A stretch of 64,000 nucleotides of DNA from an uncultured Acidimicrobiia bacterium (GTDB lineage Bacteria; Actinomycetota; Acidimicrobiia; Spongiisociales; UBA5794), in NCBI GenBank assembly GCA_963759175.1, contig CAVWXP010000008.1, positions 10,050 through 74,049 on the forward strand, in the 5' to 3' direction. This document shows positions 1 to 38,620 of the stretch, piece by piece. Below the pieces are notes generated by a model. It ran no database searches and was not told the DNA's origin. It saw nothing but the letters and a program-made list of their open reading frames with translations. Position 1 is the first letter of the stretch. Every line of letters begins with the position of its first letter. A program made the position numbers and the translations under genes.

Positions 1-354
1 GAACAGCCCTTGTGGCGCCAGTCGATCGGGGATTGCCAGCCCAGCGAGAGCGCGGCTAACAGATGCAACGAGACCCTTGTCCTCCGCAACTGCATTTGGA
101 ACCGCTTCGATCGGGAAGCCGTTCGTCCAGGTGAGCAGCTGCGGGATCAGATCGCTCGGTCCCCAACCCATCACGGTGGTGAGTCCCTGCGCATCGGTCG
201 CCTTGTCGACCAGCGAAGGGCCGATATAGCCCACTCCCTCGAAGTAGAGGCCCACCGAATCCGTGGAAACGATGGACGGGTCGTAGGTTACCTCGACCAC
301 CCACCACGCCCACGATGGATCGATACCAACGTCAGCTTTGACTTCCTCGGGCAC
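1..354 (-). CDS. hypothetical protein, partial (5' portion; 3' end beyond window start)
   Basis: Minus-strand frame is open from a GTG at 354 to beyond position 1 (VPEEVKADVGIDPSWAWWVVEVTYDPS...) and reads more protein-like than the overlapping listed ORFs 10..375(+) and 288..848(-). Confidence 0.3.
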   Translation of the reverse strand, partial: MPEEVKADVGIDPSWAWWVVEVTYDPSIVSTDSVGLYFEGVGYIGPSLVDKATDAQGLTTVMGWGPSDLIPQLLTWTNGFPIEAVPNAVAEDKGLVASVSRALAGLAIPDRLAPQGLF

Positions 355-690
355 CTGCGAGAGATCGAGCGGTAGCTGACGATACCTCGGTGGCTGCTCT
401 GCCCACGCTTGGGTCGCAGCAGCCGCGTCAAGCGTCCCCGACCGAGACGCGGAAGCGCGGCGAGTCGTCCCGCCTCAGACGCCTCAGGTGACACTGCCGC
501 AGCACGTCCGTAGATTTCCAGGTCACGAGCGATCTCAAGAAGCGCAGTCTGGGGCGTCGCGTTTCCCATCGCTGCTACTTCGAGGTCGGCTTTGATCGAC
601 TCGGGAAGACCCGCTGCGGGCTGTCCACTCGCGGATTCGAGTACAACGTGCCGAACAGGACCGGTTCGCCACTCGCTGTGTGCCTCACTG

Positions 691-1068
691 TTAGTGCAAC
701 GGTGTAGCGACCCTCGGCGCTGAGCGTAGCCCTGGCCAAGATGCGAACGTGAATTCTTCGCCCTCCACTGGGGCAGGCACATGGATAGCTGGTCCGGACC
801 GTTGGGGGTAGGAGCCTCGCTCATAGCTAACACCCACGGACTCTCCACTCCAGAAGGTCGTTTCGCTCAAGGGGCTGTCCGAAGCGGATTCGGCCACCAC
901 CTCCACGATCGCGGCAAAGGATGACTCGTCAAGGGCTGGCGGTGCTTCGTCCATGATCCCTTGCATGCGACTTGAGACCTCGTTGATAACCGCCGCGGTG
1001 GCAAGCAGGGCGAGCAGGGCTCCAATCAGCAGCAGCTGGTACTTCACGGTCACTCGTCGCACAGTCAT
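691..1068 (-). CDS. small membrane-anchored hypothetical protein (N-terminal TM helix)
   Basis: 125 aa ORF with one hydrophobic helix (LLLIGALLALLATAAV). Its start overlaps the stop of the upstream metalloprotease gene (ATGA at 1065-1068), suggesting co-transcription. Confidence 0.45.
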   Translation of the reverse strand: MTVRRVTVKYQLLLIGALLALLATAAVINEVSSRMQGIMDEAPPALDESSFAAIVEVVAESASDSPLSETTFWSGESVGVSYERGSYPQRSGPAIHVPAPVEGEEFTFASWPGLRSAPRVATPLH

Positions 1069-2198
1069 CGGTTCAACATCACGCGTGTCCGGTCAACCTT
1101 GACGTAGGTTGGGTACCCCGAGCCGTCGATCGGGCGCTCCATGTTGTTGTAGACCGCGACGCGAGTGTGCAATCGACCGTTCGTCCCACCGGTGTCCTGC
1201 CACATGACAGGTGTACTGCAGTACGACCAGTACGTACCGGGATAGCACGTGGTACTCACATCCACCCAGCCGCCAGGGGACAATGTCGAGTTGAGGTTGG
1301 CGCACGACGACACGATGTTGCCTTGGTACATGTGCCAGCGCGCGTAGAGGAAGAGCTTGACGTTTCCACTATCGATCGACGACGCTTTGCGGTAGTTGAC
1401 GCGGGCCTTCAAGTTGCCTGAAACCGTCCACGGGATGATGGTGCTGTTCTCGATTCGGGTATACCAGTGTTGGTTCTTGAAGAGGGCGTACCACGGCGAA
1501 CCGTCGGCGCCACCGCCAGACGATGAGGCATAGAAGCTCGGAGAACCGACCTGTGTCCACCACTCGAGATGGCCCGATTCGTTCTCCTCGAACGATGCGT
1601 TCGCAGTGATCGTGTCATAGCCACCCGAGGTCTCGAACTGTGAGGTGAGAGCCGCCTCGTCATCGTTCGAGAGGGTCTCCCTAGCGGTGCTCGTCACGCA
1701 CGTCGCCATTGTCGCCGGTCCGCCAGCGAATGCGTCGTCATCCCCAGAGTGACCGAGGCCGAAGGCGTGGCCCCACTCGTGCGCAGCAACCTGGGTCAGC
1801 GTGAGCGGATTCGCTGGGTCGTTGTATGCCGAGAGCTTCTGGGTGTTGAACTCGATGTTGTGGACTACGAAGCAGACGGTTCGGGCGTTGCTTGTAGAGC
1901 CGAGGTCTTGCCATCGAGCAGTCCACGATTGGCCACCCTTCGTGATCAGCCAGCCCCCGTTGTACCGCTCAACGTCGTGCGCCCATGCATAGAAGCCGTC
2001 CTCGAACTCGCCCTTCAGGGCCGGGTAGGTATTCCACTCGCTGCCGTTGTACGCCCATGTCGACGTCTGAAGGTCTCCGCAGGGACTTGACCCGTAGGTG
2101 ACGATGTCAGGGTTCGCGGCTGACGCAGCACCGCCAGTGACGACTGTTAGAACCACCATCAGCACCACCGTTGGTGCAATGTCCCTTAGGTTCCGCAA
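1065..2198 (-). CDS. secreted matrixin-like (M10/metzincin) zinc metalloprotease with C-terminal beta-rich domain
   Basis: Signal-peptide-like N-terminus. HEWGHAFGLGHS matches the metzincin HExxHxxGxxH(S) motif, followed by a Met-turn-like GGPATMAT. About 190 aa C-terminal extension. Confidence 0.8.
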   Translation of the reverse strand: MRNLRDIAPTVVLMVVLTVVTGGAASAANPDIVTYGSSPCGDLQTSTWAYNGSEWNTYPALKGEFEDGFYAWAHDVERYNGGWLITKGGQSWTARWQDLGSTSNARTVCFVVHNIEFNTQKLSAYNDPANPLTLTQVAAHEWGHAFGLGHSGDDDAFAGGPATMATCVTSTARETLSNDDEAALTSQFETSGGYDTITANASFEENESGHLEWWTQVGSPSFYASSSGGGADGSPWYALFKNQHWYTRIENSTIIPWTVSGNLKARVNYRKASSIDSGNVKLFLYARWHMYQGNIVSSCANLNSTLSPGGWVDVSTTCYPGTYWSYCSTPVMWQDTGGTNGRLHTRVAVYNNMERPIDGSGYPTYVKVDRTRVMLNR

Positions 2199-2279
2199 GC
2201 GTGCTCACCAACCCTTCGCCGATGATTGCAGAGTGCTCGAGCACATCAGGGTTGTCAATGACCATTTGCACCTAGTCAT

Positions 2280-2311
2280 GGCACCCTTGCGAAGCTGGTC
2301 GCAAGGGTGCC
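2280..2311. repeat. perfect 13-bp inverted repeat (GGCACCCTTGCGA-N6-TCGCAAGGGTGCC) hairpin
   Basis: Seen directly in sequence between the metalloprotease start and the IS remnant. No T-tract follows. Confidence 0.6.
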
Positions 2312-2406
2312 TCCGATCGTCCTTGGTCGAGCTTGCTTCCGCGGCTCAGTCCCGACTGGACTCGTCACCTCGACGCCAGGTTCGCTAGCTGTGACAACCG
2401 AAGACG

Positions 2407-2990
2407 TTGTCCCTGCCTGGATGGAGTGAAGGGGAGCCCTCCGAACGAGACTGTGGGTTGACGGACTCACAACTCGAAGGAAGGCTCGCCCACGGTAGGT
2501 CTCTGCATCCGAATACGCCTCTCACGGTGGAGGGACGTCGTCGGATGATGCGTTGTATCACGGATCGTGGCTGGTCGGTGACCGCGACAGCCGAGCGGTT
2601 CCAGGTCGATGCCAAGACGGTGCGGAAGTGGCGGGACCGGTGGCTGTTTGACGGCGATGCTGTGTTGTGGGATCGATCGTCTCGGCCACGGCGGTCACCG
2701 AACCGCACACCGAGGCACCTGCGACGTCGGGCGCTGCATCTTCGCTCCAAACGCGGTGGAGTGCTGACCACGTCGAGGTCGGGTTGGCACCCTCGACCGT
2801 GCAAAAGATCCTCAACAGTGCCGGTATCGGTCGTCTGGATAGTGGAGACCGGGCCACGCGGCGTGAACCCGTACGCCGGTATCAACGAGAACACCAGGTG
2901 AGCTCATCCACGTTGACATCAAGGAGCTCGCCGGGATCCCACACGGCGGCGGATGGCGCACGAGAGGACGCGGCTACCCCGGTGAAGGCG
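2407..2990 (+). mobile_element. IS481-family transposase remnant (N-terminal half, in three reading frames; truncated)
   Basis: Frame 1 gives MRCITDRGWSVTATAERFQVDAKTVRKWRDRWLFDGDAVLWDRSSRPRRSPNRTP, typical of the IS481 Tnp N-terminus. Frames 2/3 give PVRRYQREH and GELIHVDIKELAGIPHGGGWR, then homology stops. No terminal inverted repeats identified. Confidence 0.65.
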
Positions 2991-3001
2991 CCAGGGTCCG
3001 C

Positions 3002-3898
3002 ATGGTCGGTGATTCTCAGTCCGACATTGGATCGGACGGTTCAGGCCAAGCACCAGCGGCAGAGGGAGGGCACGACGCTCGCTACAACGCCGCAACCGGA
3101 GTCCAGCATCGTTGTGGTGTTCTTGGAGATCGGTCCGACCGAAGACCGGATGCTGCTGTCGAGATGCTCCGATCTCGCCCCGAATCCGTCGAGCTGCTCG
3201 CGGTGACTACCACGGAAGCGGAGGCAGAGATCCGGGCGGGTATGCCACCTGGAGAGCCGATGTGGAGCGACGGACCGGGATTGGTCGCCTCCGTGCGGAT
3301 CCGTGTCGACACTGATGCCGATGCCAACACGCTGATCAAGTATGCCGCCGACCTCCAGGGTGTCTCGTGGGCTGATGCCTATGTCGGCGCGATCGACGCG
3401 TACCCGCCGTGGAGCTACCAGGGATCAACCGTCGTCGAGTACGACGTGACCACGACGACATCCGTCGGCCCCGTAGCAACCGAGGCAGACCTCCCCTCGA
3501 TAACCCTCAACGCATTCGGCGGCAGCGAATCGGTCAACCTGTCGGAACTTGAACGGCCTCTGCTGATGGTGCTGTGGGCACCGTGGTGTGTCCCATGCAA
3601 CTCGCAGGTCGCGGTCGTCGAACAAGTCGCTGCCGCTCGCCCGGGCCTGAACGTGGTCGGGGTCGCCGTCGAGACAACGGGAACCGTGCCGGCAACGTGG
3701 GCCGATGATCTCGATTCATGGCTTTCTGAGTGGCAACCCACATATCGGAACTACCAAGACGACGGCGAGCTGTGGGCCGCGCTCGATGCATACGGCCTAC
3801 CTGTCGTGGTCCTCGTCCAACAGGGCGACGCCGCTCAGCTCATCCCCGGCGAACTCACCACCGATGAGCTACTGCGGGAGATCGACGAACGATCGTAG
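3002..3898 (+). CDS. TlpA/ResA-like thiol:disulfide oxidoreductase (thioredoxin fold); N-terminus possibly replaced by IS-derived sequence
   Basis: C-terminal about 140 aa has LWAPWCVPC (WCxxC) in thioredoxin-like context. The ORF starts inside the IS481 remnant and lacks a signal peptide or membrane anchor. Confidence 0.5.
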   Translation: MVGDSQSDIGSDGSGQAPAAEGGHDARYNAATGVQHRCGVLGDRSDRRPDAAVEMLRSRPESVELLAVTTTEAEAEIRAGMPPGEPMWSDGPGLVASVRIRVDTDADANTLIKYAADLQGVSWADAYVGAIDAYPPWSYQGSTVVEYDVTTTTSVGPVATEADLPSITLNAFGGSESVNLSELERPLLMVLWAPWCVPCNSQVAVVEQVAAARPGLNVVGVAVETTGTVPATWADDLDSWLSEWQPTYRNYQDDGELWAALDAYGLPVVVLVQQGDAAQLIPGELTTDELLREIDERS

Positions 3899-3915
3899 CC
3901 CTGCCGCGAACGCCA

Positions 3916-4455
3916 TCACGCGCCATCTGGTGAGCCTCGGCGTCCACTGGCGGCGTAGCGTGTGGATGCGCCGTGGCAGCGCTTGTACTTGTCGCCGGAC
4001 CCGCACGGACACGGTTTGTTGCGACCGATCTTGGTACCGGGTCGAGAAGGCAGGCCTGACATCTTCTGAGTGGCCTCAAGCTGCCGTTCACGGACCTCAA
4101 CCTCGTACTCGGCTCGTCGAAGCTGCTCGCTCCACCTGACAAGCCGCTCCTCACCTTCGGCGAGCATCCGCTCTCGCCCGTCGAGCGCTTCTTCCCGTTC
4201 GTCGAGACGACGCTCAGCCCGCTCCAGAAGCGGCAGCGCATCATCGCCATCGCCCGCAGACACCAGCTCACCATTGATCAACTCGGCAATCGCCCGACCC
4301 ATCGAAACCCCGACCAGGTGGCAATAGCGCTTCCAGGTCGACCACACCGCCTCTCTGACCGGAACCCGCACCATCCGGTACCGCTCATCACGACCGAGCC
4401 CCGCTAACAGCTTCCGATCCAATCTCGCCAATGTGCCACGGTTGAGGTCCATCAC
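3916..4455 (-). CDS. SEC-C motif (SecA C-terminal-like zinc-binding) protein with coiled-coil region
   Basis: C-terminal [21 protein letters not shown] matches the SEC-C metal-binding motif. The central region is Arg/Glu-rich coiled coil. Confidence 0.55.
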
Positions 4456-4468
4456 CTCCGCCTCACCC

Positions 4469-4482
4469 GTCTACATGTAGAC
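4469..4482. promoter_or_regulatory. perfect 14-bp palindrome GTCTACATGTAGAC, 14 bp upstream of the SEC-C gene start
   Basis: Seen in sequence; candidate operator. Confidence 0.4.
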
Positions 4483-5067
4483 ATCGGGCAACTTGTTGCA
4501 CGTGCGTGTGGTTTTGGAGGGTGGCAGGCGCGCATCGCGATCGCGATCCGGGATGCGCTGGCGAGTCGACTGCTGGGCTGATGCGGTTGGTGTGACATCG
4601 GGTTCCTTTGTCGCGATTGGCTAAGTGCTCATCGTGGAGTAGGACCCTGTCATCTCGTGACCATTCGCCGCGACCGTCGGGGATCGAGGGGATGTCCGGA
4701 CACCGTTGGGGCGCTTGGTGAAGTGCTCTGGGCGCTCTCGACGTCCACGAGGATGCTCGCAACAACCGATACGAACGTTCCTGGCTGTCCAACCGCCACG
4801 AGGCCGTGACGGCCTGTTTCAACGCTCGCGACGGCCGGGGCTCCGGCATCCGCGGACGCATCCAGCTCCGTCGTTGCGCGTGCGACCCCTTTCCGCAGAG
4901 TGTCAGGAGACCTGTCGCGAACCTTCCAACTCGAACGTTCGGCGAGCCTTGAGGCCTACCCAGCGAGGTTGCCGGAGCGTTGGGCGGCGAACCCGCCGAC
5001 CCCGATTCTCTGTCAATGAGCGTCGAGTTGGAGGGTTGCTGACACTCTGGCGACAGGGTCATCCGGC

Positions 5068-6183
5068 ATGGTCGCCACAGAGAACGCGTCGAAGGGACGT
5101 GAGGTGGCTTCGATCCGCAGAGTTGTTCACCGGACCGGTCGCACGTCGTGGCAGGCCCGGTGGAGGGACCCCACCGGGGCGCAGCGGTCGAAGAACTTCG
5201 GTCGTCGTATCGACGCTGAACGGTTCCTCGTTACCGTCGAGGCCCGCAAGCTCGCCGGCACCTACATCGACCCCGGTGCAGGACGTGTCCGCCTCGGCGA
5301 CTTCACTGAACAGGCCACCTCGGGGTGGGTGAACCGACGCGACTCGACGAAAGCCCGCGACGAGTCGTATCTGCGCAGCCTCGTCCTCCCCGCCTTCGCC
5401 GACATGCCGATCGGCGCCATCGGTGTCTTCGACGTCCAGGAATGGGTGGGGGACCTCGACGCCGACGGGTACGCCCCAGCCACCATCCGCAAGGCCCACC
5501 AGCTGCTCGGACGAATCCTCAACGACGCGGTCAGCGGCGGAATCATCGCCGCCAGCCCGTGCCGCAACATCACCCTGCCCAGGATCGAAGACACCGAGAA
5601 GCGGTTCCTCTCCCCCGACGAGATCACCCACCTCGCCGACACCATCGATCCCCGCTACCGAGCCCTCGTCATCACCGCCGCGTACACCGGGTGCCGCATC
5701 GGGGAACTCATCGCCCTCGACACCGACCGCTACCAACCCGACCAGCAGATCATCCGCGTCGAACGATCACTCGCCGAGGTGCGCGGGCACCTCCGCTTCG
5801 GGCAACCCAAAACCGCAGCCGCCCGCCGCGCCGTGTCGCTACCGCACTGGCTACCCGACGTGATCGACCGGCACCTGGCGGACTATCCGCCCGGACCCGA
5901 CGGCTTGCTGTTCACCGCCTCCGAAGGCGGGCCCATCCGCCGCAACGCCTTCCGATCCCGCGTCTGGCTCCCCGCCGTCGACGACTCCGTCGGTGAGCCG
6001 ATGCGGTTCCACGACCTGCGCCACAGCCACGTCGCCCTCCTCATCGCCCAAGGTGCCCACCCGGCCGTGATCGCCTCCCGCCTCGGGCACACCAGCGTCA
6101 AGACCGTCCTCGACGTCTACGGCCACCTCTACGAAGGCCTCGACCGCAACGCCGCCGACACCCTCGACCCGCCCTGGGACTGA
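5068..6183 (+). CDS. int: tyrosine-type site-specific recombinase/phage integrase
   Basis: Catalytic-domain motifs RFHDLRHSH and GHTSVKTVLDVYGHL. About 370 aa. Ends 98 bp from the 3' end of tRNA-Val. Confidence 0.9.
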   Translation: MVATENASKGREVASIRRVVHRTGRTSWQARWRDPTGAQRSKNFGRRIDAERFLVTVEARKLAGTYIDPGAGRVRLGDFTEQATSGWVNRRDSTKARDESYLRSLVLPAFADMPIGAIGVFDVQEWVGDLDADGYAPATIRKAHQLLGRILNDAVSGGIIAASPCRNITLPRIEDTEKRFLSPDEITHLADTIDPRYRALVITAAYTGCRIGELIALDTDRYQPDQQIIRVERSLAEVRGHLRFGQPKTAAARRAVSLPHWLPDVIDRHLADYPPGPDGLLFTASEGGPIRRNAFRSRVWLPAVDDSVGEPMRFHDLRHSHVALLIAQGAHPAVIASRLGHTSVKTVLDVYGHLYEGLDRNAADTLDPPWD

Positions 6184-6188
6184 TCGTG

Positions 6189-6209
6189 ATGTGGACGCAA
6201 TGTGGACGC
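6189..6209 (+). repeat. tandem direct repeat 2x (A)ATGTGGACGC between int stop and the tRNA 3' end
   Basis: Seen in sequence; candidate arm-type integrase binding sites in the attachment region. Confidence 0.4.
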
Positions 6210-6280
6210 GACGCAACCGGCACCGCGACCAAGGAAGGGGATTGACCTAGGAAATCCAACAGCACAAGGGCTTCCGGTCG

Positions 6281-6352
6281 TGGGCGCTACTGGGATCGAA
6301 CCAGTGACCTCTGCCGTGTGAAGGCAGCGCTCTCCCGCTGAGCTAAGCGCCC
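6281..6352 (-). tRNA. tRNA-Val (anticodon CAC)
   Basis: Reverse complement folds as GGGCGCT acceptor stem, anticodon loop TTCACAC and GGTTCGATCC T-arm. CCA not encoded. Confidence 0.85.
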
Positions 6353-6432
6353 GAATGCATCGGCATTGTAGGTGCCTGCGCTCGTGCACCGGCACCGCCA
6401 CCGGGCAAGGTGCTGGCGACGAACCAGTCCTC

Positions 6433-7362
6433 CTACAGGTCGACGACCCGTCGGAATCCCAGGTGGCTCATGCCGGTATCGATCATCTGGGGTTGCCTCG
6501 CAGCCGGCCGATATCGGTAGCAGTACTGCGGCGTGCACAGGTGGCTGCCACCCTTGACGACCTTGCGGGGAATCGGGGTGCCCGGCATGTGTGGGTCGAG
6601 GCTGTCGTCGCGCAGCGCGCCCCTGGGATCGGGCGGCGCACAACATGATGGCTCCCCCACCAAGGAAGCGGGATCGTTCGTGTACCAGTCGTCGGTCCAC
6701 TCCCACGTGTTGCCGGTCATGTCGTGGAGGCCGTAGCCGTTCGGAGGAAACGACCCCACGGGCGAGGTCCGGATCCAGCCGTCGAGTTCGGTGTTTTCGA
6801 AGGGGAACGTCCCTTGCCACGTGTTGGCGAGCGGCGCCGACTCCTGGGGGTCGTCATCGCCCCAGGCGAATCGTGCACCGTCGAGACCTCCCCGGCACGC
6901 GTATTCCCACTCGGCCTCGGTCGGTAGCCGCCCTCCCGCCCATGCACAGAAGGCCGCAGCGTCCTCGTGGGACATGTGCACCACGGGATGGTCCTCGATC
7001 CCCGCGACGCTCGATCCCGGACCGAGGGGCCGGGACCAGCTCGCACCGGGCGTCCACCGCCACCACTGGCGGAAGTCGGTCAGCGGTACCGGGCCGCTCG
7101 TCATGGTGAACACGAGGGCACCCGGGGTGAGATCGGCGGGCGATGCACCCGGATACAACGAGGGGTCGAGATCTCGCTCGGCGACCGTCACGTAGCCTGT
7201 CGCTTCGACGAAGTCGGCGAATCGGGCATTGGTCACCGGGTACGGGTCGATGCCGAACGAGTCAACACGCAAACGTCGCACCGGCGCCTCGTCCGGGTAG
7301 AACTCATTCGATCCCATGGCGAACTCGCCACCATCGATGGGTATCGGATCGGGCTGTGTCAT
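6433..7362 (-). CDS. formylglycine-generating enzyme (FGE/SUMF1) family protein
   Basis: Motifs MTGNTWEWT, RGGS and C-terminal SHLCTPQYCYRYRPAAR (catalytic Cys pair). Confidence 0.85.
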   Translation of the reverse strand: MTQPDPIPIDGGEFAMGSNEFYPDEAPVRRLRVDSFGIDPYPVTNARFADFVEATGYVTVAERDLDPSLYPGASPADLTPGALVFTMTSGPVPLTDFRQWWRWTPGASWSRPLGPGSSVAGIEDHPVVHMSHEDAAAFCAWAGGRLPTEAEWEYACRGGLDGARFAWGDDDPQESAPLANTWQGTFPFENTELDGWIRTSPVGSFPPNGYGLHDMTGNTWEWTDDWYTNDPASLVGEPSCCAPPDPRGALRDDSLDPHMPGTPIPRKVVKGGSHLCTPQYCYRYRPAARQPQMIDTGMSHLGFRRVVDL

Positions 7363-7429
7363 CTCGCTCGCACGCTAGCCCGAGCGCTGGGGTGGTCGAC
7401 ATCGGTCGAGGCGTGGCGGTCAGCGACCT

Positions 7430-8851
7430 TCAACGGGGCACAGCCGTTCGGACGGCGTGGCCGACAGCCGCCCGTTTCGCCACCACCTGTTCACCTATCG
7501 CCTCCACCCTGCGGCCACGAATCCACTGCTTGGCGACCTTCGCGATACGAACGACGCGCTCAGATGCATATACGAGGGCGGCGAGGCTCAAGGGGAGCAG
7601 GATCCCGGTGACGACACCGGCGATCACCGACTCACGGAAGGCCTGCCACACCGCGATCGCCCAGGCAATGCCGAAGAACACGATCGCACCGGCTGGCTTT
7701 GCGGTGGCCTTCACCGCGGGTTCGACGGGCAGGAAGCCGATGGCACCGACGAGGAGGAGCGGCCAGATGTTGACCGTCAGCCCGACGAGGGCGAGGGGTA
7801 TCGCTACGAGCAGAACGAGGGCGCTGCGGATGAGGAAACCGACGAAACTCCCCGTGCCCATCTTGTGATAGACCTCGGCATCGGTCAGTCCCACACCAGA
7901 GAGGTCGCCATCGAGCTCCTCGGTTGCCGTCATGATCGCTGACTTGTCCGAGGCATCGACTCTCGCGAGATCGGCTGCGAGGAGATCGCGATCCGCTATC
8001 GACACCGGGGCGGCGGGGTCGGCGGCTTCTGATCTGAGCGTCACCTCGGCGGCGTGGGTCAGGGTCTTCGCCTCGTGCCAATCGGAGAAGTTGGGTGCAA
8101 CCCTGCGCAGGTACAACTCGATGTCGGCTGTCAGGCGCGCTACCGCATCGCGATTGTCCGGCGACGCTTGACCTTCTGGCGCGTACTGCTCGATCGATGC
8201 GTCGAGGTCGATCGGGGTCCCGGCGTTGATGAACACGTTCGACCGCAGCGCCGCCTTGTTCTCGTAGTGGATGCCGATCGGGAGGATCCGGATGCCAGCC
8301 GTCCCCTCCTGCCTGGCGCCGAGGGCGATGCGGGCCGCACCGGTCTTCACCGGGGCGATGGACGGGTCCTCCCTCGTGATGCCCTCGGGGAAGATCAACA
8401 GCGGTTCCCCTGCGGCCAGGGCTGCGTAGCACGACGCGAACATGTCCTTGTTCGACGAAGGACCCTTCTGCTCCTTGGGCTTGTGGACCGGTATGGCCCC
8501 GATCGCGTTCATGATCCAACCTGCGAAGGGCACCTTCCAGATCTTGTCGCGAGCGACGATGCGAGGGACCACCGGGGATGCATAGACCAGCAGGAACGGA
8601 TCAGCGAATCCGCCAAAGTGGTTCGACACAGCGAGCACGGGCGCCCCATCCGGTAGGTCGGCGCTGGTCGAAGCGAGAACCTCGACCCGCTCGTAGAGGA
8701 AGAACACCGCGAACGAGACCAGTCGCTTGATGAATCGGTCACGCCATCGCAGGTTCGAGCGAGCCGGTCGCCGTTCGTCGTCGTGCTCACCCATGGGCGA
8801 CCCGTTCGTGGATTCCGAGTCCCACCGCGATCGTCTCCTCACGCCGAGCAT
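7430..8851 (-). CDS. PlsC/LPLAT-family acyltransferase with C-terminal multi-TM domain
   Basis: NHFGGFADP (HxnD-like; the spacing is non-canonical) and IFPEGITRED (FPEGTR) motifs. Four hydrophobic helices in the C-terminal 150 aa. Confidence 0.6.
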   Translation of the reverse strand: MLGVRRRSRWDSESTNGSPMGEHDDERRPARSNLRWRDRFIKRLVSFAVFFLYERVEVLASTSADLPDGAPVLAVSNHFGGFADPFLLVYASPVVPRIVARDKIWKVPFAGWIMNAIGAIPVHKPKEQKGPSSNKDMFASCYAALAAGEPLLIFPEGITREDPSIAPVKTGAARIALGARQEGTAGIRILPIGIHYENKAALRSNVFINAGTPIDLDASIEQYAPEGQASPDNRDAVARLTADIELYLRRVAPNFSDWHEAKTLTHAAEVTLRSEAADPAAPVSIADRDLLAADLARVDASDKSAIMTATEELDGDLSGVGLTDAEVYHKMGTGSFVGFLIRSALVLLVAIPLALVGLTVNIWPLLLVGAIGFLPVEPAVKATAKPAGAIVFFGIAWAIAVWQAFRESVIAGVVTGILLPLSLAALVYASERVVRIAKVAKQWIRGRRVEAIGEQVVAKRAAVGHAVRTAVPR

Positions 8852-8963
8852 CGGCTTGTCGTCCGTTCCCTGTTCGCGCCTGAGTATGGCCCCCGCGACC
8901 GCGTTCCTCCACTCACGCGGGTGGTGTGCTCGGACCCATCACGTCGACGGGTACGATCGCTCC

Positions 8964-9317
8964 GTGCACATCGAGGAGTTCGAACGGGAGGTGGAGGTCG
9001 TCCTGGCTCGCCTGCCCGATTGGGTGAAGGAGGCCATGGACAACGTCTATGTCGTCGTCGAACGGCGGCCGTCGAAGGCGCAGGACCCTACAGGGGATGG
9101 ACTGCTCGGGCTGTACGAGGGGGTATCCCTCGACGAACGGGGGTTCGACTACTTCGGCGTGGCTCCCGACAGCATCTTCGTCTTCTATGAGCCACACATG
9201 GCCCTCGGCCTCACGGGCCAGGCGCTTCGGGACGAGATTCGTACAACGGTCCTCCACGAACTCGGACATCACCTCGGCATGACGGACGAGCGGCTTCACG
9301 AGCTCGGATGGGCCTGA
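8964..9317 (+). CDS. zincin-like metallopeptidase family protein (DUF1025-like)
   Basis: TTVLHELGHHLGMTDERLHELGW motif. GTG start chosen at 8964; an ATG at 8886 is also possible. Divergent from the acyltransferase gene. Confidence 0.5.
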   Translation: MHIEEFEREVEVVLARLPDWVKEAMDNVYVVVERRPSKAQDPTGDGLLGLYEGVSLDERGFDYFGVAPDSIFVFYEPHMALGLTGQALRDEIRTTVLHELGHHLGMTDERLHELGWA

Positions 9318-9679
9318 ACGTCGCGGGTAGCATGGTTCCAGAACGAAGGGAGTCCCACGTGGAAGATCTGATCAAGGACATCCAGGCCCGCACGGGCCTT
9401 CCCGCCGACAAGGTGCTCGAGGTGGTGACGATGGTCACCGACTACATGCGCAACGCGCTACCCGAGGACCTGGTCGCACAGATCACCCAGTACCTCGGTT
9501 CAGCGGCCGAACAGGCCGGAGGCGCTGCCGGCTCGGCGCGATCGGTCGCCTCATCCGCGACCGCAGCAGCCGCGACCGCCGCATCCGGCGTCATCGGAGC
9601 AGCATCCGGTGCTGCAGGAACGGCGTACACGGCGGCGCGCACGGTGGTCAACGACGCCATGACGAACGACGATCAGTGA
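9308..9679 (+). CDS. hypothetical protein (Ala-rich C-terminus)
   Basis: ORF overlaps the stops and starts of its neighbours (translational coupling into plsB). No recognised motif. Confidence 0.4.
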   Translation: MGLNVAGSMVPERRESHVEDLIKDIQARTGLPADKVLEVVTMVTDYMRNALPEDLVAQITQYLGSAAEQAGGAAGSARSVASSATAAAATAASGVIGAASGAAGTAYTAARTVVNDAMTNDDQ

Positions 9680-12105
9680 CCGCACCGACCCCTATCGATC
9701 TCCACGACCACGATCCCCCGTGGCCGGTCAAGGGCGGACCGTACGTCCTCCTGATCGACGCCTCGAGTCCCGTAGAGGACAGCCTCATCCGAGCCTGGTT
9801 CGCTCGCGTGGCAAACGGCGTGACCGATCCGGTCGACATCTTCCGACTCCCACCGTCGAGACGTCGACGTGCCTTTGCATCGGTGGATCCCATCATCGAC
9901 CAGCGCCTGTCCGAGGAGGACGATCCGCTCCTGATCCCGGTACGCGTCGTGTGGCTCGCACCCGAACGCGACGGAGTGCGAAGGGTCACCGTCCGCGACA
10001 GCATCAGGCTCGGCGACCCCAGGGACCCGAACCGCCTCCGCCAACGTGCCATCCTCGCCACCCATCCGGAACGAGCTCGTGTCATCGTCGGCGAACCAGC
10101 GCGACGAACCACCCTCATGCGTCGCTGGCTCGAGCCGGAGGGTCGTGGTCCTGCCGATGGAACCACGTTCGGCGAGTTCGTGGCCCTGCGGGCGTGGCTC
10201 GCCCTGGAACGCTCGGAACGGCGTCTCCGCGGTCAGCGCTACAAGGTGCCGCGTTTCCTCGAGGAGGACCTGTTCTGGAGTCGCCCGTTCCAGTACGGCG
10301 TCCAGAAGCTCGCCGAGGAGGAGGGCCGCTCGGAACGTCGCATGCAGCAGCGCACCAAGCGATACCTCAAGGAAATCGCCGCCAAGCACACACCGTACGT
10401 CATCGACCTCGTCAACCACATCACCCAGATCCTCATCCAGGCCGCACACCAGAGCGTGGACTACTCCCCTGAGGAGCTCGCATCGATCGTCCGCCTCGGC
10501 GAGTCCGACCCGTTGGTGTACCTGCCCTCCCACAAGTCGAACTTCGACCATCTCGTGCTCCAGCACGTCCTCTTCGAGAACGAGCTGCCCCTCAACCACA
10601 CGGCCGGCGGCATCAACCTCAACTTCTTCCTCGTCGGCCCGCTCCTGCGCCGATCAGGGATCTTCTTCATCCGGCGTGAGTTCAAGAAGAACGAGCCCTA
10701 CAAGTTCGTTCTCCGCCAGTACCTGGACTATCTGCTCGAGAAGCGATTCGCGCTCGAGTGGTACATCGAAGGTGGCCGCTCACGCACGGGGAAGCTACGC
10801 GAGCCGCGCCTCGGGTTGCTTGCGTACGTCGCCGACTCCTACCAGCGAGGCATCGTCGATGACGTCGTCCTGGTCCCGGTGTCCATCAACTACGACCAGA
10901 TCACCGACATCGCATCGTATGCCGATGAGCAGAAGGGCCGCGAGAAGGAGAAGGAGTCCTTCATGTGGGCCGTCAAGTTCATCTCGGGCCTCCGACGCCG
11001 CAACGGCAGCATCCACGTCCGTTTCGGTGAACCCCTCCCGCTCAGCAGCCGGATCGGGCGCGACGACGACCTCACGGAGGGAGAAGGCAGGCTCGCTCTG
11101 CCAAAGGTGGCGTTCGAAGTGAGTACGCGCATCAACGATGTGACCCCGATCACCGCCACAGGCCTCGTGACGTTGGCGCTGCTCTCAGGGGGCTCCCGCG
11201 GATTCACCGTCAACCAGACGATCGAGATACTCGACCCGTTCCTCGCCTTCGTGACGGAGCGGAACCTGCCGACCACGTTCGATCACGCCATGTCCTCCCG
11301 CATCGAGGTCGAAGGCGCACTCGAGTCGTTGCGCGCCAACGATGTGGTGGCGCGCACCGACGGGTTGACGGAGACCCTCTATGCCATCGGCGCCGACCAG
11401 TATCTCGAGGCCGCCTACTACCGCAACACGATCATCCACTTCTTCGTCACCACCGGCATCACCGAACTCGCCATAGCCCGCGGCGTCCTGTCACAGGGCC
11501 CCATGGACGAGGAGTCGATCGTCGAACGGGCGCTCGAGCTGCGTGACCTCCTCAAGTTCGAGTTCTTCTTCGCTCCCAAGAAGGAGTTCGCCGATGAGAT
11601 CCGCGTCGAGATCGACCGCTACCGACTCGATCGGGGCGACCCCGGTGCACCCGTGATGGTGGATATCACGGCGATGCTGCCAGCCAAGAGCCCGATCGTC
11701 CTCCGCCCGTTCCTCGAGGCGTACTTCGTGGTTGCCTCGGCGCTTGCGTCGTTTGCCGATCTGGAGGTCCAGGTCGACGAGTTGCGCAAGGCCTCCCTCC
11801 AGATGGGCGAGCAGCTCTACTCCCAGGGCAAGATCAAGAACCACGAAGCGGTCTCGACGGCGCTGTTCGCCTCGGGTGTCGAACTCATCGACAATCGGGG
11901 TCTGCTCGCGGCAGACAGCGTTGCCCGTCAAGGCCTTCGGACGGAACTCGACCAGATCCTGGCCGCTCTCGACGAGCATCGCCTCCATCTGAGCGATATA
12001 GGTCGCTGGACCCATATATCCGCTCAACTTCGCCGTATCCCTGCCGATACAGGGAAGAAGGGCAAGCGGAGTTGTGCGTGCAGTGCACGCAGGAGACGTC
12101 GATGA
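9676..12105 (+). CDS. plsB: glycerol-3-phosphate 1-O-acyltransferase PlsB
   Basis: 809 aa with SHKSNFDHL (HxxxxD), GIFFIRR and EGGRSRTGKL motifs, diagnostic of PlsB. Confidence 0.85.
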   Translation: MTAPTPIDLHDHDPPWPVKGGPYVLLIDASSPVEDSLIRAWFARVANGVTDPVDIFRLPPSRRRRAFASVDPIIDQRLSEEDDPLLIPVRVVWLAPERDGVRRVTVRDSIRLGDPRDPNRLRQRAILATHPERARVIVGEPARRTTLMRRWLEPEGRGPADGTTFGEFVALRAWLALERSERRLRGQRYKVPRFLEEDLFWSRPFQYGVQKLAEEEGRSERRMQQRTKRYLKEIAAKHTPYVIDLVNHITQILIQAAHQSVDYSPEELASIVRLGESDPLVYLPSHKSNFDHLVLQHVLFENELPLNHTAGGINLNFFLVGPLLRRSGIFFIRREFKKNEPYKFVLRQYLDYLLEKRFALEWYIEGGRSRTGKLREPRLGLLAYVADSYQRGIVDDVVLVPVSINYDQITDIASYADEQKGREKEKESFMWAVKFISGLRRRNGSIHVRFGEPLPLSSRIGRDDDLTEGEGRLALPKVAFEVSTRINDVTPITATGLVTLALLSGGSRGFTVNQTIEILDPFLAFVTERNLPTTFDHAMSSRIEVEGALESLRANDVVARTDGLTETLYAIGADQYLEAAYYRNTIIHFFVTTGITELAIARGVLSQGPMDEESIVERALELRDLLKFEFFFAPKKEFADEIRVEIDRYRLDRGDPGAPVMVDITAMLPAKSPIVLRPFLEAYFVVASALASFADLEVQVDELRKASLQMGEQLYSQGKIKNHEAVSTALFASGVELIDNRGLLAADSVARQGLRTELDQILAALDEHRLHLSDIGRWTHISAQLRRIPADTGKKGKRSCACSARRRRR

Positions 12106-12764
12106 CGACGACAGACATGCAGCACGAAGCATCACATGCAGCGTCCCGGGACGCGTCCGATGGACCGTCGTCCGCAACCTCGATTCCCACGACATCGGAC
12201 CCAGCATCCGAACTCCTCGCCAAGGCGCGCTACGAGGCATTCCGCCTCGTGACCGAGGCCCGTCAGGAGGCCGAGGAGATCCTCGACGAGGCCCGCGCAG
12301 AAGCGGCCAGCATCCGCAAGGACGCCGAGGTGCAGGCCGAGTCGATCGTCGACGCCGCCCACGTCCGCTCCAAGGAGATCATCGCATCGTCGGAACCCGA
12401 CGGCGACACCCACGCAGCCGAGGCCGTGGCGAACCTCGAGCACGAACACGAGGCATTGACCCAGAGGGTCAGTTCACTCCGCACGCTTGCCGACCAACTC
12501 GAGGAGAGGTTCGCCGCCCTCGCAGCCACCGCCAACGCGACGCACCCGACGATCGAGGAGCCTCCGCGCCCGGTCCTGGACTACTCGCCGTCCGTCCCGC
12601 GCCGTGTAGCGGCCGAACCCGTCGATGACGAGGACGAACCGGTGACCGAGCGGGGATCGTTCTACAGCCGCCGGTCGGCGAAGCTCCCGCGTATCGGTGA
12701 CGCGGGTGGCAAGGACGCGCTCGACATGATGCGATCGCTCAGGGAGTCATTCGACGACGAGTGA
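12102..12764 (+). CDS. hypothetical coiled-coil protein (DivIVA/ATP-synthase-b-like helical region)
   Basis: ATGA overlap with the plsB stop. EAEEILDEARAEAASIRKDAEVQAESI helical repeat. Confidence 0.45.
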   Translation: MTTTDMQHEASHAASRDASDGPSSATSIPTTSDPASELLAKARYEAFRLVTEARQEAEEILDEARAEAASIRKDAEVQAESIVDAAHVRSKEIIASSEPDGDTHAAEAVANLEHEHEALTQRVSSLRTLADQLEERFAALAATANATHPTIEEPPRPVLDYSPSVPRRVAAEPVDDEDEPVTERGSFYSRRSAKLPRIGDAGGKDALDMMRSLRESFDDE

Positions 12765-12770
12765 GCCGGC

Positions 12771-13394
12771 TCAGGCGTAGAAGGGGTTCGTTCCGAGGGA
12801 GTGATCGGTGACGTCGACGACCTCGTCGATCTCGGGAATCGCTTCGAGGATGGCCCGCTCGATTCCCTGACGAAGGGTCACCGCAGCGAGGCCACAGCCC
12901 TGGCATCCACCGCCGAGCTCGAGCATCGCCGTCGTGTCCTGCACCGAGATCAGATGCGCTACGCCGCCATGGGAGGCGATGGCCGGGTTGATCCGCTCAC
13001 TCAACAGGGTGCGGATCTTCTCCTCCGGCGTCCCGACCAGCTCGAGGTCTCCCAATTCGCCACCCGGCAGCTCCGGGGAGGGGACGTTCGGATTCCGCAT
13101 CACGAGGCCGGGACCGGCACCGTCACCTGAGAGGTCGAGGACGGCACCACGGAGGTTCTCGACCGAATCGAGGGCGATCGCAACCGGCAACCCACCATGG
13201 TCCTCGACCAGGTCGGTCGACGAGATGTCGTCTCCGCGCAGGAACGCCGTCTCGTAGATGAATCCTTGGGCGCCGACACCGGTGATCCGCAACCCGAGGT
13301 GCAGGTCCGGGATTCCTTCGCCGTCTCGCAGCGACAGGATCTTGTCGCGTGCGGCCTCGGTGATTTCAACGATGGACGTAGTGGTATCGCTCAT
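12771..13394 (-). CDS. nfuA: Fe-S cluster biogenesis protein NfuA-like (HesB/IscA-like N-terminal domain plus Nfu domain)
   Basis: C-terminal GGGCQGCGLAAVTL (CxxC Nfu motif). N-terminal A-type carrier-like fold. Confidence 0.75.
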   Translation of the reverse strand: MSDTTTSIVEITEAARDKILSLRDGEGIPDLHLGLRITGVGAQGFIYETAFLRGDDISSTDLVEDHGGLPVAIALDSVENLRGAVLDLSGDGAGPGLVMRNPNVPSPELPGGELGDLELVGTPEEKIRTLLSERINPAIASHGGVAHLISVQDTTAMLELGGGCQGCGLAAVTLRQGIERAILEAIPEIDEVVDVTDHSLGTNPFYA

Positions 13395-13436
13395 GATGGC
13401 GGGATGGTACCCACCGGTGCCGGGGTACCGCGACGA

Positions 13437-13751
13437 TCACGGTTTGAGGATGACCAACTCGTTCGTGCGTAGATCGAGCACCTGCTCGTCGGCGCTGGCG
13501 CGGTCGGCGATCCACCGTGCGAGGGACTCCCCCGGCACCCTGACGATCCACCACATCACGTCCGTGGTATCGGATGCACGCATGTCATGCCACCGTTGAC
13601 GACCGACGGCGATCGCCTCGGCCTCGACGTCGAACACACCGAGAACCTGCTGCGACGTCCCGGGAAACGGGCGTCCGGGTTCCGGCGATGGTTCGCAAAA
13701 CTCAACGACTTCGAATGCCATGCTGTGTCCACTCCTCGAGCCCACGAGCAT
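13437..13751 (-). CDS. hypothetical protein
   Basis: ORF with reasonable composition and no recognisable motif. The start may be at the internal Met (13721). Confidence 0.3.
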   Translation of the reverse strand: MLVGSRSGHSMAFEVVEFCEPSPEPGRPFPGTSQQVLGVFDVEAEAIAVGRQRWHDMRASDTTDVMWWIVRVPGESLARWIADRASADEQVLDLRTNELVILKP

Positions 13752-25405: not shown

Positions 25406-25882
25406 TCACGGGTGTCTCGGGGTCGGTCGGCTCATGTCGGCTGGGGCGTCGTCGTGAGAGCCGTCTTTGGCGTTCCCGATCCGGGTGCCTCGCTCGACTT
25501 CGAGCTCGAGCAGCACATCGACAACATGATTCATCTGCTCATCGGTGACGGGATCGAACCGGTATGCCTCGTGGACGAAGGCCGCCGTGTCGCCTCGGAA
25601 GTCGTGTCCGAAGGACTTGAACTGTCCAGGAATCACTCGCATTGCGTTCATGGCATCCACCATCACCTGAACGAATGAGATCAGCGGCACCCATTCCATC
25701 CGTTCCGGCACCCCACGTCCCCTGGTGTCGGATGCAAGCCAAGCAGGGCGTTTCACCGCCATGCGGAATGACATCTGAGCGATCGGATCATTGTCGTGGT
25801 CCAGCACGATCGCCCGAAGCTGATTGGCTTCCGCTCGAGGGAGTCCATGCAACTCTTCGATGCGGTCGAACGCATCGTTCAT
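25406..25882 (-). CDS. hypothetical protein (operon partner upstream of SulP)
   Basis: 158 aa, 9 bp upstream of the SulP start. No recognised motif. Confidence 0.45.
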   Translation of the reverse strand: MNDAFDRIEELHGLPRAEANQLRAIVLDHDNDPIAQMSFRMAVKRPAWLASDTRGRGVPERMEWVPLISFVQVMVDAMNAMRVIPGQFKSFGHDFRGDTAAFVHEAYRFDPVTDEQMNHVVDVLLELEVERGTRIGNAKDGSHDDAPADMSRPTPRHP

Positions 25883-25943
25883 ATTCGATCTTTGGGGAAA
25901 TGGTTGGCGCTCATCGCGGTCGCCACTTCGTGTTCGAGATGCT

Positions 25944-26525
25944 TCAGGTTGAGATCCGTACGTACGTGATGGAGGGAACGTCGGCCAGGGTGTCTTCGAC
26001 GATCGACACCAGGCTCTCGGGACATCCGATCACCAGGCTCACTCCACAACGGTCTGTCTGACCACCGACGCGGGCGAGATCCCCCCACGACATCGACCTC
26101 CGGGTCTCAGCAGCGAGCGTTGAGAGCCCTGCGCGCTCCCCTGGTTTGCCTGCGAGGTAGCCGGTTCCATCAACAGCCGACGGGTATAGCCAAAGGACGA
26201 GGCCGGTTGCCGGCCCCCAACCGTCCCCGAGCGCTCGACCGATAGTTGATGAAAGAGCGAACTTCCTGAGGATCTTCGTTGCCCCGCCGTCTTGTGGTCC
26301 GACGATCGCCATATCGACCTGGTCGACAACGTTCCTCTCGACGAGGAGGTCCTTCACCGCCTGATAGGCATTTCGGGCCGCTTCAACGGACTCCAGACAT
26401 GCTGTGATGAGGACGATGGTCTCAGGCCCTGGGGATTCGCTGTCGTCATACCGATCCGGAGGCACAGCGTCACTCCAACGACGGCGCTGTGGCTGAGACA
26501 CCAGCCGATGCACCAGATCGCTCAC
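25944..26525 (-). CDS. DUF1269-like (general-stress-type, tandem ACT-like fold) protein
   Basis: ETIVLITAC...AARNAYQAVKDLLVERNVVDQVDMAIV pattern resembles DUF1269/YflT-type proteins. Weaker than the second copy at 36001. Confidence 0.45.
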   Translation of the reverse strand: MSDLVHRLVSQPQRRRWSDAVPPDRYDDSESPGPETIVLITACLESVEAARNAYQAVKDLLVERNVVDQVDMAIVGPQDGGATKILRKFALSSTIGRALGDGWGPATGLVLWLYPSAVDGTGYLAGKPGERAGLSTLAAETRRSMSWGDLARVGGQTDRCGVSLVIGCPESLVSIVEDTLADVPSITYVRIST

Positions 26526-26574
26526 GAGGTTCGTACTTCATATGCGAGACCATTGCGCGCTTCGATCAATGGCG

Positions 26575-26592
26575 CATCACCCGAAACGGGTG
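26575..26592. promoter_or_regulatory. palindromic motif CATCACCCGAAACGGGTG (copy 1 of recurring CACCCG-N3-CGGGTG element)
   Basis: 50 bp upstream of the DUF1269-like gene start. An identical 15-bp palindrome architecture recurs four more times in the window. Confidence 0.6.
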
Positions 26593-26614
26593 CGATTGGT
26601 GGAAGGTCCGCGGC

Positions 26615-38262: not shown

Positions 38263-38314
38263 GCCGGTCAATGAATTGGGGGGAAGACCGCCAAGCAATC
38301 GTTCTCCCCAATCG
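38233..38314. repeat. 14-bp perfect inverted repeat CGATTGGGGAGAAC ... GTTCTCCCCAATCG (54-nt spacer) abutting the 3' end of tRNA-Val(GAC)
   Basis: Seen in sequence. The right arm ends one base before the tRNA 3' end. Confidence 0.6.
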
Positions 38315-38386
38315 TGGGCGCTACTGGATTTGAACCAGTGACCCCTGCCGTGTCGAGGCAGTGCTCTGCCGCTGAGCTAAGCGCCC
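38315..38386 (-). tRNA. tRNA-Val (anticodon GAC)
   Basis: GGGCGCTTAGCTCAGCGG..., anticodon loop CTCGACACG? read as TCGACAC, GGTTCAAATCC T-arm. Confidence 0.85.
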
Positions 38387-38440
38387 GGGTTTGTCGGTGA
38401 CCAGAAGATAGCCATCGAGGATGACATACCACTGCGGTCG

Positions 38441-38511
38441 AGGCGACGCCGGGAATCGAACCCGGGTACAGGGTTTTGCAGACCCTTGCCTCGCCACTCG
38501 GCCACGTCGCC
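38441..38511 (-). tRNA. tRNA-Cys (anticodon GCA)
   Basis: GGCGACGTGGCCGAGTGG..., anticodon loop CTGCAAA, GGTTCGATTCC T-arm. Confidence 0.8.
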
Positions 38512-38544
38512 AATAGGAAGGGCGGTCCTCGAGACCGCCCTCTC

Positions 38545-38620
38545 TGGAGCGGACGACCGGGTTCGAACCGGCGACCTCAACCTTGGCAAGGTTGCGCTCT
38601 ACCAGCTGAGCTACGTCCGC
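38545..38620 (-). tRNA. tRNA-Gly (anticodon GCC), CCA encoded
   Basis: GCGGACGTAGCTCAGCTGGTAGAGC..., anticodon loop TTGCCAA, GGTTCGAACCC, ...TCCA. Confidence 0.85.

Follow-up and report, generated by a model that had tools for sequence, protein, structure and literature searches.

A probable att-bounded integrative island of about 7.9 kb at tRNA-Val(CAC) in a member of the Acidimicrobiia from marine sediment

We analyzed a 64,000-nt stretch of contig CAVWXP010000008.1 (assembly GCA_963759175.1, positions 10,050-74,049 of the forward strand), referred to below as the window, from an Acidimicrobiia bacterium of marine sediment, and found near its left end an island that occupies the 3' end of the gene for tRNA-Val(CAC). 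With a probability of roughly 0.85, this island is an integrated element of ~7.9 kb bounded by attachment (att) repeats, made up of window positions 1-6324 and a further ~1.65 kb to the left, the window thus holding its right-hand 80% (1-6324). It is a small tRNA-targeting integrative island of a well-known type; of its components, the SEC-C-type companion of the recombinase alone has no described counterpart. The features that define the integration site and the integration module are as follows.

6280-6352, minus strand: tRNA-Val(CAC) gene, intact, the integration target (ARAGORN; Rfam tRNA model, 68 bits)
6280-6324, no strand assigned: tRNA-proximal copy of the att core GTGGGCGCTACTGGGATCGAACCAGTGACCTCTGCCGTGTGAAGG, 45 nt (perfect second copy at 2545-2589 of L059rc/L067, the contig described below)
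5068-6183, plus strand: tyrosine integrase (Pfam Phage_integrase PF00589, 6e-16; PHROG integrase phrog_1, 3e-68)
6188-6250, plus strand: out-of-frame remnant of the integrase tail, DVDAMWTRRNRHRDQGRGLT followed by a stop (integrase alignments)
6190-6198 and 6201-6209, within the tail remnant: TGTGGACGC repeat pair, candidate arm-type integrase-binding sites
4887-4934 and 5023-5058, no strand assigned: long inverted repeat with ~45-bp arms, ahead of the integrase start (repeat search)
4469-4510, no strand assigned: conserved cis-element upstream of the SEC-C gene, candidate operator/promoter (alignment)
3916-4455, minus strand: SEC-C protein of 179 aa, core gene of the element family (PF02810, 1.5e-9)

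The 45-nt core on the tRNA gene extends from the last two bases of the 5' strand of the anticodon stem to the 3' end, a classic attachment site of the anticodon-loop type. The opposite end of the island was reached through a homology search with the SEC-C protein, which led to an ENA contig of 10,481 bp encoding the identical protein (L059; L067 is the same contig in the orientation of the window). This contig is 99.6% identical to window positions 1-6280 (25 differences; 8 single-base insertions or deletions, hereafter indels) and carries a perfect copy of window positions 6280-6324, in the same orientation, ~1,654 bp to the left of window position 1. The spacing of 7,936 bp between the two 45-mers delimits a direct-repeat-bounded element whose left repeat is read from L059/L067. 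A sequence-only reading of the window had proposed an element at tRNA-Val(CAC) with its integrase-proximal end in the window and its distal att site upstream of position 1; the repeats in L059/L067, together with the family of elements at the same site, bear out the first proposal, and the perfect distal copy bears out the second. That reading had also seen no repeat of the tRNA 3' end inside the window, and the present searches agree: the 22-mer of the tRNA 3' end has no further match to the left of the tRNA with up to 3 mismatches allowed, partial copies of the 45-mer are absent from the same region down to 12 nt exact or 20 nt with 4 mismatches, and repeat searches for a decayed att site inside the window gave none.

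The integrase gene (5068-6183, plus strand) is convergent with the tRNA gene (minus strand), as previously claimed; the gap to the tRNA 3' end, earlier given as 98 bp, is 96 nt because the integrase stop codon ends at 6183. Outside the distal att site of L059/L067 lie ~350 bp resembling the integrase-att spacer of other elements, followed by a Kup potassium-transporter gene. Rfam models matched only the tRNA. A k-mer shift at the boundary had been suggested as a check, and atypical composition was found within the element: positions 1-3000 are the most atypical of the 64 kb (tetranucleotide z of 4.7-6.9; GC z of about -2), and the composition of ~3500-6500 is ordinary, with a tetranucleotide z below 1.7 to the right of ~3000.

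Comparison with related loci revealed that the same tRNA gene is used by a family of elements with different contents, their integrases (46-93% identity) standing at this tRNA in many related metagenome contigs. The right flank, at 8.9-13.4 kb of the window, is common to the window and loci L006 and L008 and comprises a Zincin_1 gene, a small open reading frame (ORF), a gene for a GPAT-type acyltransferase of ~800 aa, and NifU. In both L006 and L008 an integrase gene stands beside an identical tRNA-Val(CAC) gene (also identical in L032 and L041), and the integrase-side genes are wholly different from those of the window. L008 is a complete element of 5.8 kb, with the identical 45-mer at 5474-5518 and 11246-11290, an integrase 87% identical to that of the window, a SEC-C homolog at 48%, and different cargo. 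A metagenome scan seeded with the GPAT alignment yielded 49 loci, in which the right flank is likewise syntenic and the tRNA 3' side varies, and 28 of which have tRNA-Val(CAC) upstream of Zincin_1. In 13 of these 28, the contig breaks no more than 110 nt from the tRNA 3' end, which is the mark of a strain-variable site; nine continuing loci carry integrases or integrase fragments at 46-89% identity, and in five others (L012, L015, L038, L024, and L042) the adjoining 0.7-2 kb are free of integrases. The site is polymorphic in L006, L008, L020, L032, L035, L040, and L058, where the right flank is conserved and the integrase and cargo vary. In the comparison with related genomes that had been proposed earlier in search of an empty site, the right flank proved conserved and the tRNA 3' side variable, and a conspecific empty site was not found.

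Directly outside the distal att site, L067 (2200-2545) and L008 (5307-5432) each contain relic sequence similar to the arm region and integrase 3' end of a further element; the relic to the left of the L008 distal repeat comprises 126 nt of an older integrase 3' end. These relics indicate repeated integration and decay at one site. In locus L063 (182-15554), two elements stand in tandem at tRNA-Val(TAC), and the att sequence, 51-52 nt long, is present three times. Its first element contains genes for an integrase, an HTH_17 excisionase, a SEC-C protein, and a sigma-70 region-4 protein as well as AbiE-like genes, and its second element encodes an integrase of 381 aa from the same family as that of the window, together with a SEC-C protein, alkyl sulfatases, and a transporter for sulfate. 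This tandem array matches the accretion pattern of integrative elements (PMC5704250).

The integrase consists of N-terminal arm-binding, SAM-like, and catalytic domains, and its true start is likely the GTG at 5104. The catalytic set of the tyrosine recombinases (R-K-H-R-H/W-Y) is complete, R210, K248, H315, R318, H341, and Y351 all being present and invariant in the integrase alignment. More than 100 relatives at 56-93% identity were found, nearly all in Acidimicrobiia metagenome-assembled genomes (MAGs) or marine-sediment metagenomes. The window and L059 integrases share 368 of 370 residues, and 8 of the 10 nucleotide substitutions between them are synonymous, indicating that the gene has been under purifying selection. 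The complete elements L059 and L008 both carry, near either end, a pair of the motif TGTGGWCGC with 11-bp spacing, at a distance of 71-140 bp from the tRNA-proximal end and of 118 bp from the distal one; beyond 6190-6209, the whole 64-kb window contains one other match. The proximal pair overlaps the coding sequence of the 22-aa C-terminal tail of the integrase. On the excised circle these pairs would flank the core, as the arm-type sites of heterobivalent integrases do, and they are likely the arm-type binding sites for this integrase. Upstream of the integrase start, the long inverted repeat contains the motif AGAGTGTCA at 4897 (plus) and 5040 (minus), its sole two occurrences in the 64 kb. 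The same motif pair was found upstream of tyrosine integrases of 46-90% identity elsewhere and only with tyrosine integrases. The stem is conserved in sequence and shows almost no covariation, so the DNA-site and RNA readings of the repeat are inseparable; an operator pair, arm sites, or a structure in the 5' untranslated region are all possible functions.

The SEC-C gene is separated from the divergent integrase gene by a spacer of ~600 bp with two conserved cis-elements. The sequence-only reading had counted this protein as cargo, a view that the related loci overturn. Homologs at 47-65% identity are encoded divergently beside a tyrosine integrase in L008 (48%), L032, and L007 and twice in L063 and L064; remnants are present in L006 and L004; and a 53% homolog in L065 and L066 is divergent from a serine recombinase beside tRNA-Leu(GAG). 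This recurrence, always divergent from a recombinase, marks the gene as core rather than cargo. The search returned 1131 homologs at E<1e-3, and the family build comprises a conserved N-terminal domain of ~65 residues, a single helix of ~60 residues (coiled coil), and the SEC-C zinc knuckle (AlphaFold2 model for the window protein). The N-terminal domain has no Pfam or PDB sequence match, and model confidence over it is low (pLDDT of 45-80). A ribbon-helix-helix fold for this domain is an idea suggested solely by the pattern of an extended segment ahead of two helices.

The cis-element upstream of the SEC-C gene is composed of a perfect palindrome, GTCTACATGTAGAC, at 4469-4482 and an invariant block, GCAACTTGTTGCACGTGCGTGTG, at 4488-4510. 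Of the 9 SEC-C genes examined, 8, those of the serine-recombinase loci included, have the palindrome 17-30 nt ahead of the start codon, and the variant in L008 keeps the symmetry. The combination of GTCTACATGTAGAC and the invariant block CACACGCACGTGCAACAAGTTGC is nearly invariant in the window, L063, L064, L065, L066, L007, and L008, in which the SEC-C proteins are only ~50-60% identical and the recombinases are tyrosine or serine enzymes. We hypothesize that the SEC-C protein may be a DNA-binding regulator of the recombination module. The broader proposal that it is an undescribed portable control component of Acidimicrobiia integration modules, acting as a repressor, directionality factor, or excision switch, is tentative, and we hold it at well below even odds. 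Our literature search found no paper that deals with elements of this family or with a role of SEC-C proteins in recombination.

From these arrangements we infer the following mechanism, including the roles of the arm sites and of the SEC-C protein. A heterobivalent tyrosine integrase would recombine the 45-bp core of a circular element with the identical sequence of the tRNA gene, from the anticodon stem to the 3' end, thereby rebuilding an intact tRNA and leaving 45-bp direct repeats at both ends. The paired TGTGGWCGC repeats inside each end would serve as the arm-type binding sites. The core module consists of the integrase, the divergent SEC-C protein, and the ~600 bp of conserved regulatory DNA between them, the remainder being exchangeable cargo. 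Such an element, which is without replication, transfer, or phage genes, would need outside help for any movement between cells.

Everything outside the integrase, the SEC-C gene, and the conserved spacer is cargo and is exchangeable. The cargo features within the window are as follows.

1-1068, minus strand: membrane-anchored protease partner, first ~357 codons of a gene of ~403 aa (tblastn)
1065-2198, minus strand: secreted metzincin-type zinc protease with HEWGHAFGLGH (Pfam Peptidase_M10 PF00413, 28.4 bits against a gathering score of 24)
2407-2901, plus strand: remnant of an IS481-family transposase, N-terminal helix-turn-helix (HTH)/leucine zipper (Pfam HTH_28, 1e-10; LZ_Tnp_IS481, 2.5e-5)
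3002-3898, plus strand: thioredoxin-fold protein of 298 aa with a C-terminal WCVPC domain and an unassigned N-terminal half (family matches below cut-off)

The description of the protease as secreted and matrixin-like holds: its N-terminus reads as a putative signal peptide, and the HExxHxxGxxH motif is accompanied by the family-level profile match. The Peptidase_M10 match spans profile positions 102-155 of 159 only, and the protein is therefore metzincin-like rather than a full-length matrixin. A scan of GTDB genomes identified homologs in five MAGs at 43-50% identity, and in all five loci (L001-L005) the protease is followed by a partner of ~400 aa, the two forming a conserved pair. Exact-sequence searches with the integrase, the 125-aa ORF, and the FGE-sulfatase gave no match. 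The membrane partner had been described as a protein of 125 aa; the corresponding ORF (691-1068, minus strand, with a hydrophobic start) is real, although it is the N-terminal piece of the ~403-aa gene and not a complete gene. Searches by tblastn with the partner proteins of L001 (408 aa) and L059 (403 aa) matched window positions 981-697, 635-495, and 396-10 in alternating frames, and the gene is broken in the window both by the window edge and by the loss, compared with L059, of one nucleotide each at 451, 651, and 724. The pair also travels in other actinobacterial islands. In L004 (Acidimicrobiaceae, 1501-10030), it lies inside an 8.5-kb element that is flanked by a 44-nt repeat of tRNA-Ala(CGC) and has an integrase 54% identical to that of the window, and in L005 (Nitriliruptorales, 8773-13574), it lies between tRNA-Arg(ACG) and a 46-nt repeat, beside a truncated integrase. 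PADLOC, NCBIfam, and other profile searches gave no match of the protease or its partner to defence or functional models.

The gene at 3002-3898 had been called a TlpA-like oxidoreductase, of which the thioredoxin fold (WCVPC) stands and the TlpA assignment does not. The Thioredoxin, Redoxin, TlpA, and ResA models all score below their cut-offs (28 bits against a cut-off of 230 for TlpA), and the ORF has no N-terminal hydrophobic segment such as would place it with TlpA/ResA. The protein is identical in L059 and L060. The transposase was correctly recognized as a remnant: the NCBIfam model transpos_IS481 matches it with 54.5 bits (cut-off 224) over profile positions 1-74 of 284 only, leaving no DDE domain, and it does not qualify as an IS481 insertion sequence, which would comprise a full transposase with a DDE (rve) domain and terminal inverted repeats. 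The atypical composition of positions 1-3000 beside the ordinary composition of ~3500-6500 suggests that the element probably acquired the protease cassette from another source, perhaps by way of the IS481 copy that is now a remnant. In the part of the element beyond the window, L059 contains the last ~46 codons of the partner gene, a small membrane protein (92 aa), an HTH protein of the XRE type (PF01381, 5e-13), and a pair of ORFs of 112 and 61 aa that reads like one nucleotidyltransferase-type gene with a stop inside.

Several observations count against this reading of the island. The left end is taken from a 99.6% identical contig of another assembly, a different molecule from the source contig, and L059/L067 terminates exactly at the proximal att site (window 6280). 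Neither an empty site in a conspecific genome nor an excised circle was found, and in the search for an empty site by way of Kup, the closest homologs of this protein (79% and 72%) had unrelated neighbouring genes and no tRNA beside them. No excisionase was recognized among the genes of the element, and the relative L063/L064 has an HTH_17 gene beside its integrase. Finally, the integrase of the window is without the 22-aa C-terminal tail that is conserved down to homologs of 61% identity: the full-length family frame would end at 6250, and an extra base creates a TGA stop at 6181-6183 that removes the tail. At this junction, the family sequence is CCCTGGGACCCATC-TGATGTGG and that of the window is CCCTGGGACTGATCGTGATGTGG, which yields the TGA stop, whereas CCCT-GGACTGATCGTGATGTGG in L059 restores the frame. 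The tail-less integrase and the three deletions in the partner gene may mean that the window copy is decaying.

These defects are the main argument for a fossil island, one that integrated once, lost the function of its integrase with the tail, and has since been inherited only vertically while its cargo decays, and they are joined in this by the reduction of the IS481 transposase to a remnant and by the lack of a detected excisionase. We consider this possible but doubtful, given that the att repeats are perfect, the catalytic residues are all intact, and most substitutions relative to L059 are synonymous. Moreover, the integrase and partner genes of L059 are intact, yet this contig has a 1-nt insertion of its own that breaks the C-terminus of the protease, where the window frame matches the homologs, a pattern typical of long-read assembly errors. 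Single-base indels between the two contigs occur at 451, 651, 724, 1157, 3904, 6176, and 6258, and the genes with a shifted frame differ between the contigs. Since the indels differ between two near-identical contigs of long-read style, assembly error is suggested as the source of the frame defects in the window, in L059, or in both. As for the window copy itself, the odds that it is still mobile are roughly even.

The sharp change of composition near 3000 (tetranucleotide z of 4.7-6.9 up to that point and below 1.7 beyond it) would also fit a composite of two tandem elements, namely a unit of the integrase, SEC-C, and thioredoxin-fold genes and an older protease island, with the IS481 remnant at the joint. 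Tandem accretion is real in this family, as L063 demonstrates, and relics of the integrase-side arm of an older element lie to the left of the distal att site in L008 and L059. However, no internal att site, even a partial one, was detected in window positions 1-6250 or in L059 between the 45-mers, and the protease cassette of L004 lies within a single att-bounded element with a related integrase, so we regard a composite origin as improbable. The remnant of a prophage or phage satellite, or else an actinomycete integrative and conjugative element (AICE), would share the tRNA target, which is typical of both classes, and an integrase 31-33% identical to the tyrosine integrases of mycobacteriophages, but these origins are scarcely credible for an element of only 7.9 kb in which capsid, terminase, Rep, FtsK-like Tra, and relaxase families have no match in any of the ~10 genes of the whole unit and for which the best integrase matches in IMG/VR reach 28-42%. 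The prophage was rejected on the lack of phage genes, PHROGs giving only the integrase and the SEC-C motif and no virion, packaging, or phage-replication gene, and on the lack of a close integrase relative in IMG/VR. An att-bounded, tRNA-targeting island with exchangeable cargo is the reading that we retain.

Further observations concern the remainder of the window. Between the tRNA 5' end and Zincin_1, positions 6433-8851 contain an FGE-sulfatase-family gene (6433-7362, minus strand) and a gene for a 473-aa acyltransferase (7430-8851, minus strand). Both genes are absent from the related loci, more than 40 in number, whose sequence extends this far; there the tRNA and Zincin_1 are within ~70-900 bp of each other. 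This marks 6433-8851 as an insertion specific to the lineage, on the side of the tRNA opposite the island; flanking repeats of this insertion were not found. A second atypical stretch is located at 25501-28500 (GC z of about -2.3; tetranucleotide z of ~2.7). A tRNA cluster of Val(GAC), Cys(GCA), and Gly(GCC) is present at 38314-38620 (minus strand), and the distance from this cluster to tRNA-Val(CAC) is 32 kb in the window versus 11.4 kb in L012.

The tRNA-Val(CAC) gene thus emerges as a strain-variable integration hot spot in an uncultured marine-sediment lineage of Acidimicrobiia. The exact att and arm sequences obtained for a widespread integrase family could help to delimit islands in MAGs and to explain the assembly breaks at this tRNA, and could perhaps yield a tool for site-specific integration in a group without genetics. 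As cargo, the secreted metzincin protease moves jointly with its membrane partner among tRNA islands of different actinobacterial classes.

Among known systems, AICEs such as pSAM2 are defined by Int, Rep, and an FtsK-like Tra, and none has been found in Acidimicrobidae (PMC3429521). The island resembles them in its actinobacterial host, tyrosine integrase, and tRNA 3'-end target but is without the defining Rep and Tra functions: RepSA, RepAM, and Prim-Pol have no Pfam or NCBIfam match in any gene of the 7.9-kb unit, and the genes called in L059 and in the window include no recognizable FtsK/SpoIIIE-like Tra. The AICE assignment was rejected on these grounds. Integrative and mobilizable elements (IMEs) and their decayed forms, the cis-mobilizable elements (CIMEs), have been reviewed together with the accretion model (PMC5704250). 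With these the island shares an integrase of its own for site-specific integration, with no excisionase recognized beside it, the absence of conjugation machinery, and a tandem arrangement with older relics at the same att site. Family searches of the element genes identified no relaxase or coupling protein, and without a recognized mobilisation function (relaxase, oriT, or proven hijacking of a conjugative helper) the island cannot be called an IME; since the integrase is kept, it is not a CIME either. The closest counterparts are the tRNA islands with lambda-type (heterobivalent) tyrosine integrases. From these, the present family differs in its very small size (5.8-8.5 kb) and in being known only from uncultured Acidimicrobiia, and this member differs in having no recognizable excisionase (Xis) and a SEC-C-type protein in the usual Xis/repressor position. 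In all other compared respects the island is alike to them: it has an integrase gene at the tRNA 3' junction and a direct repeat at the far end (seen in L059/L067), both repeats being 45-bp parts of the tRNA gene, a rebuilt tRNA, the same set of integrase domains, candidate arm repeats in both ends, variable cargo, atypical composition, and a capacity for tandem accretion within its family.

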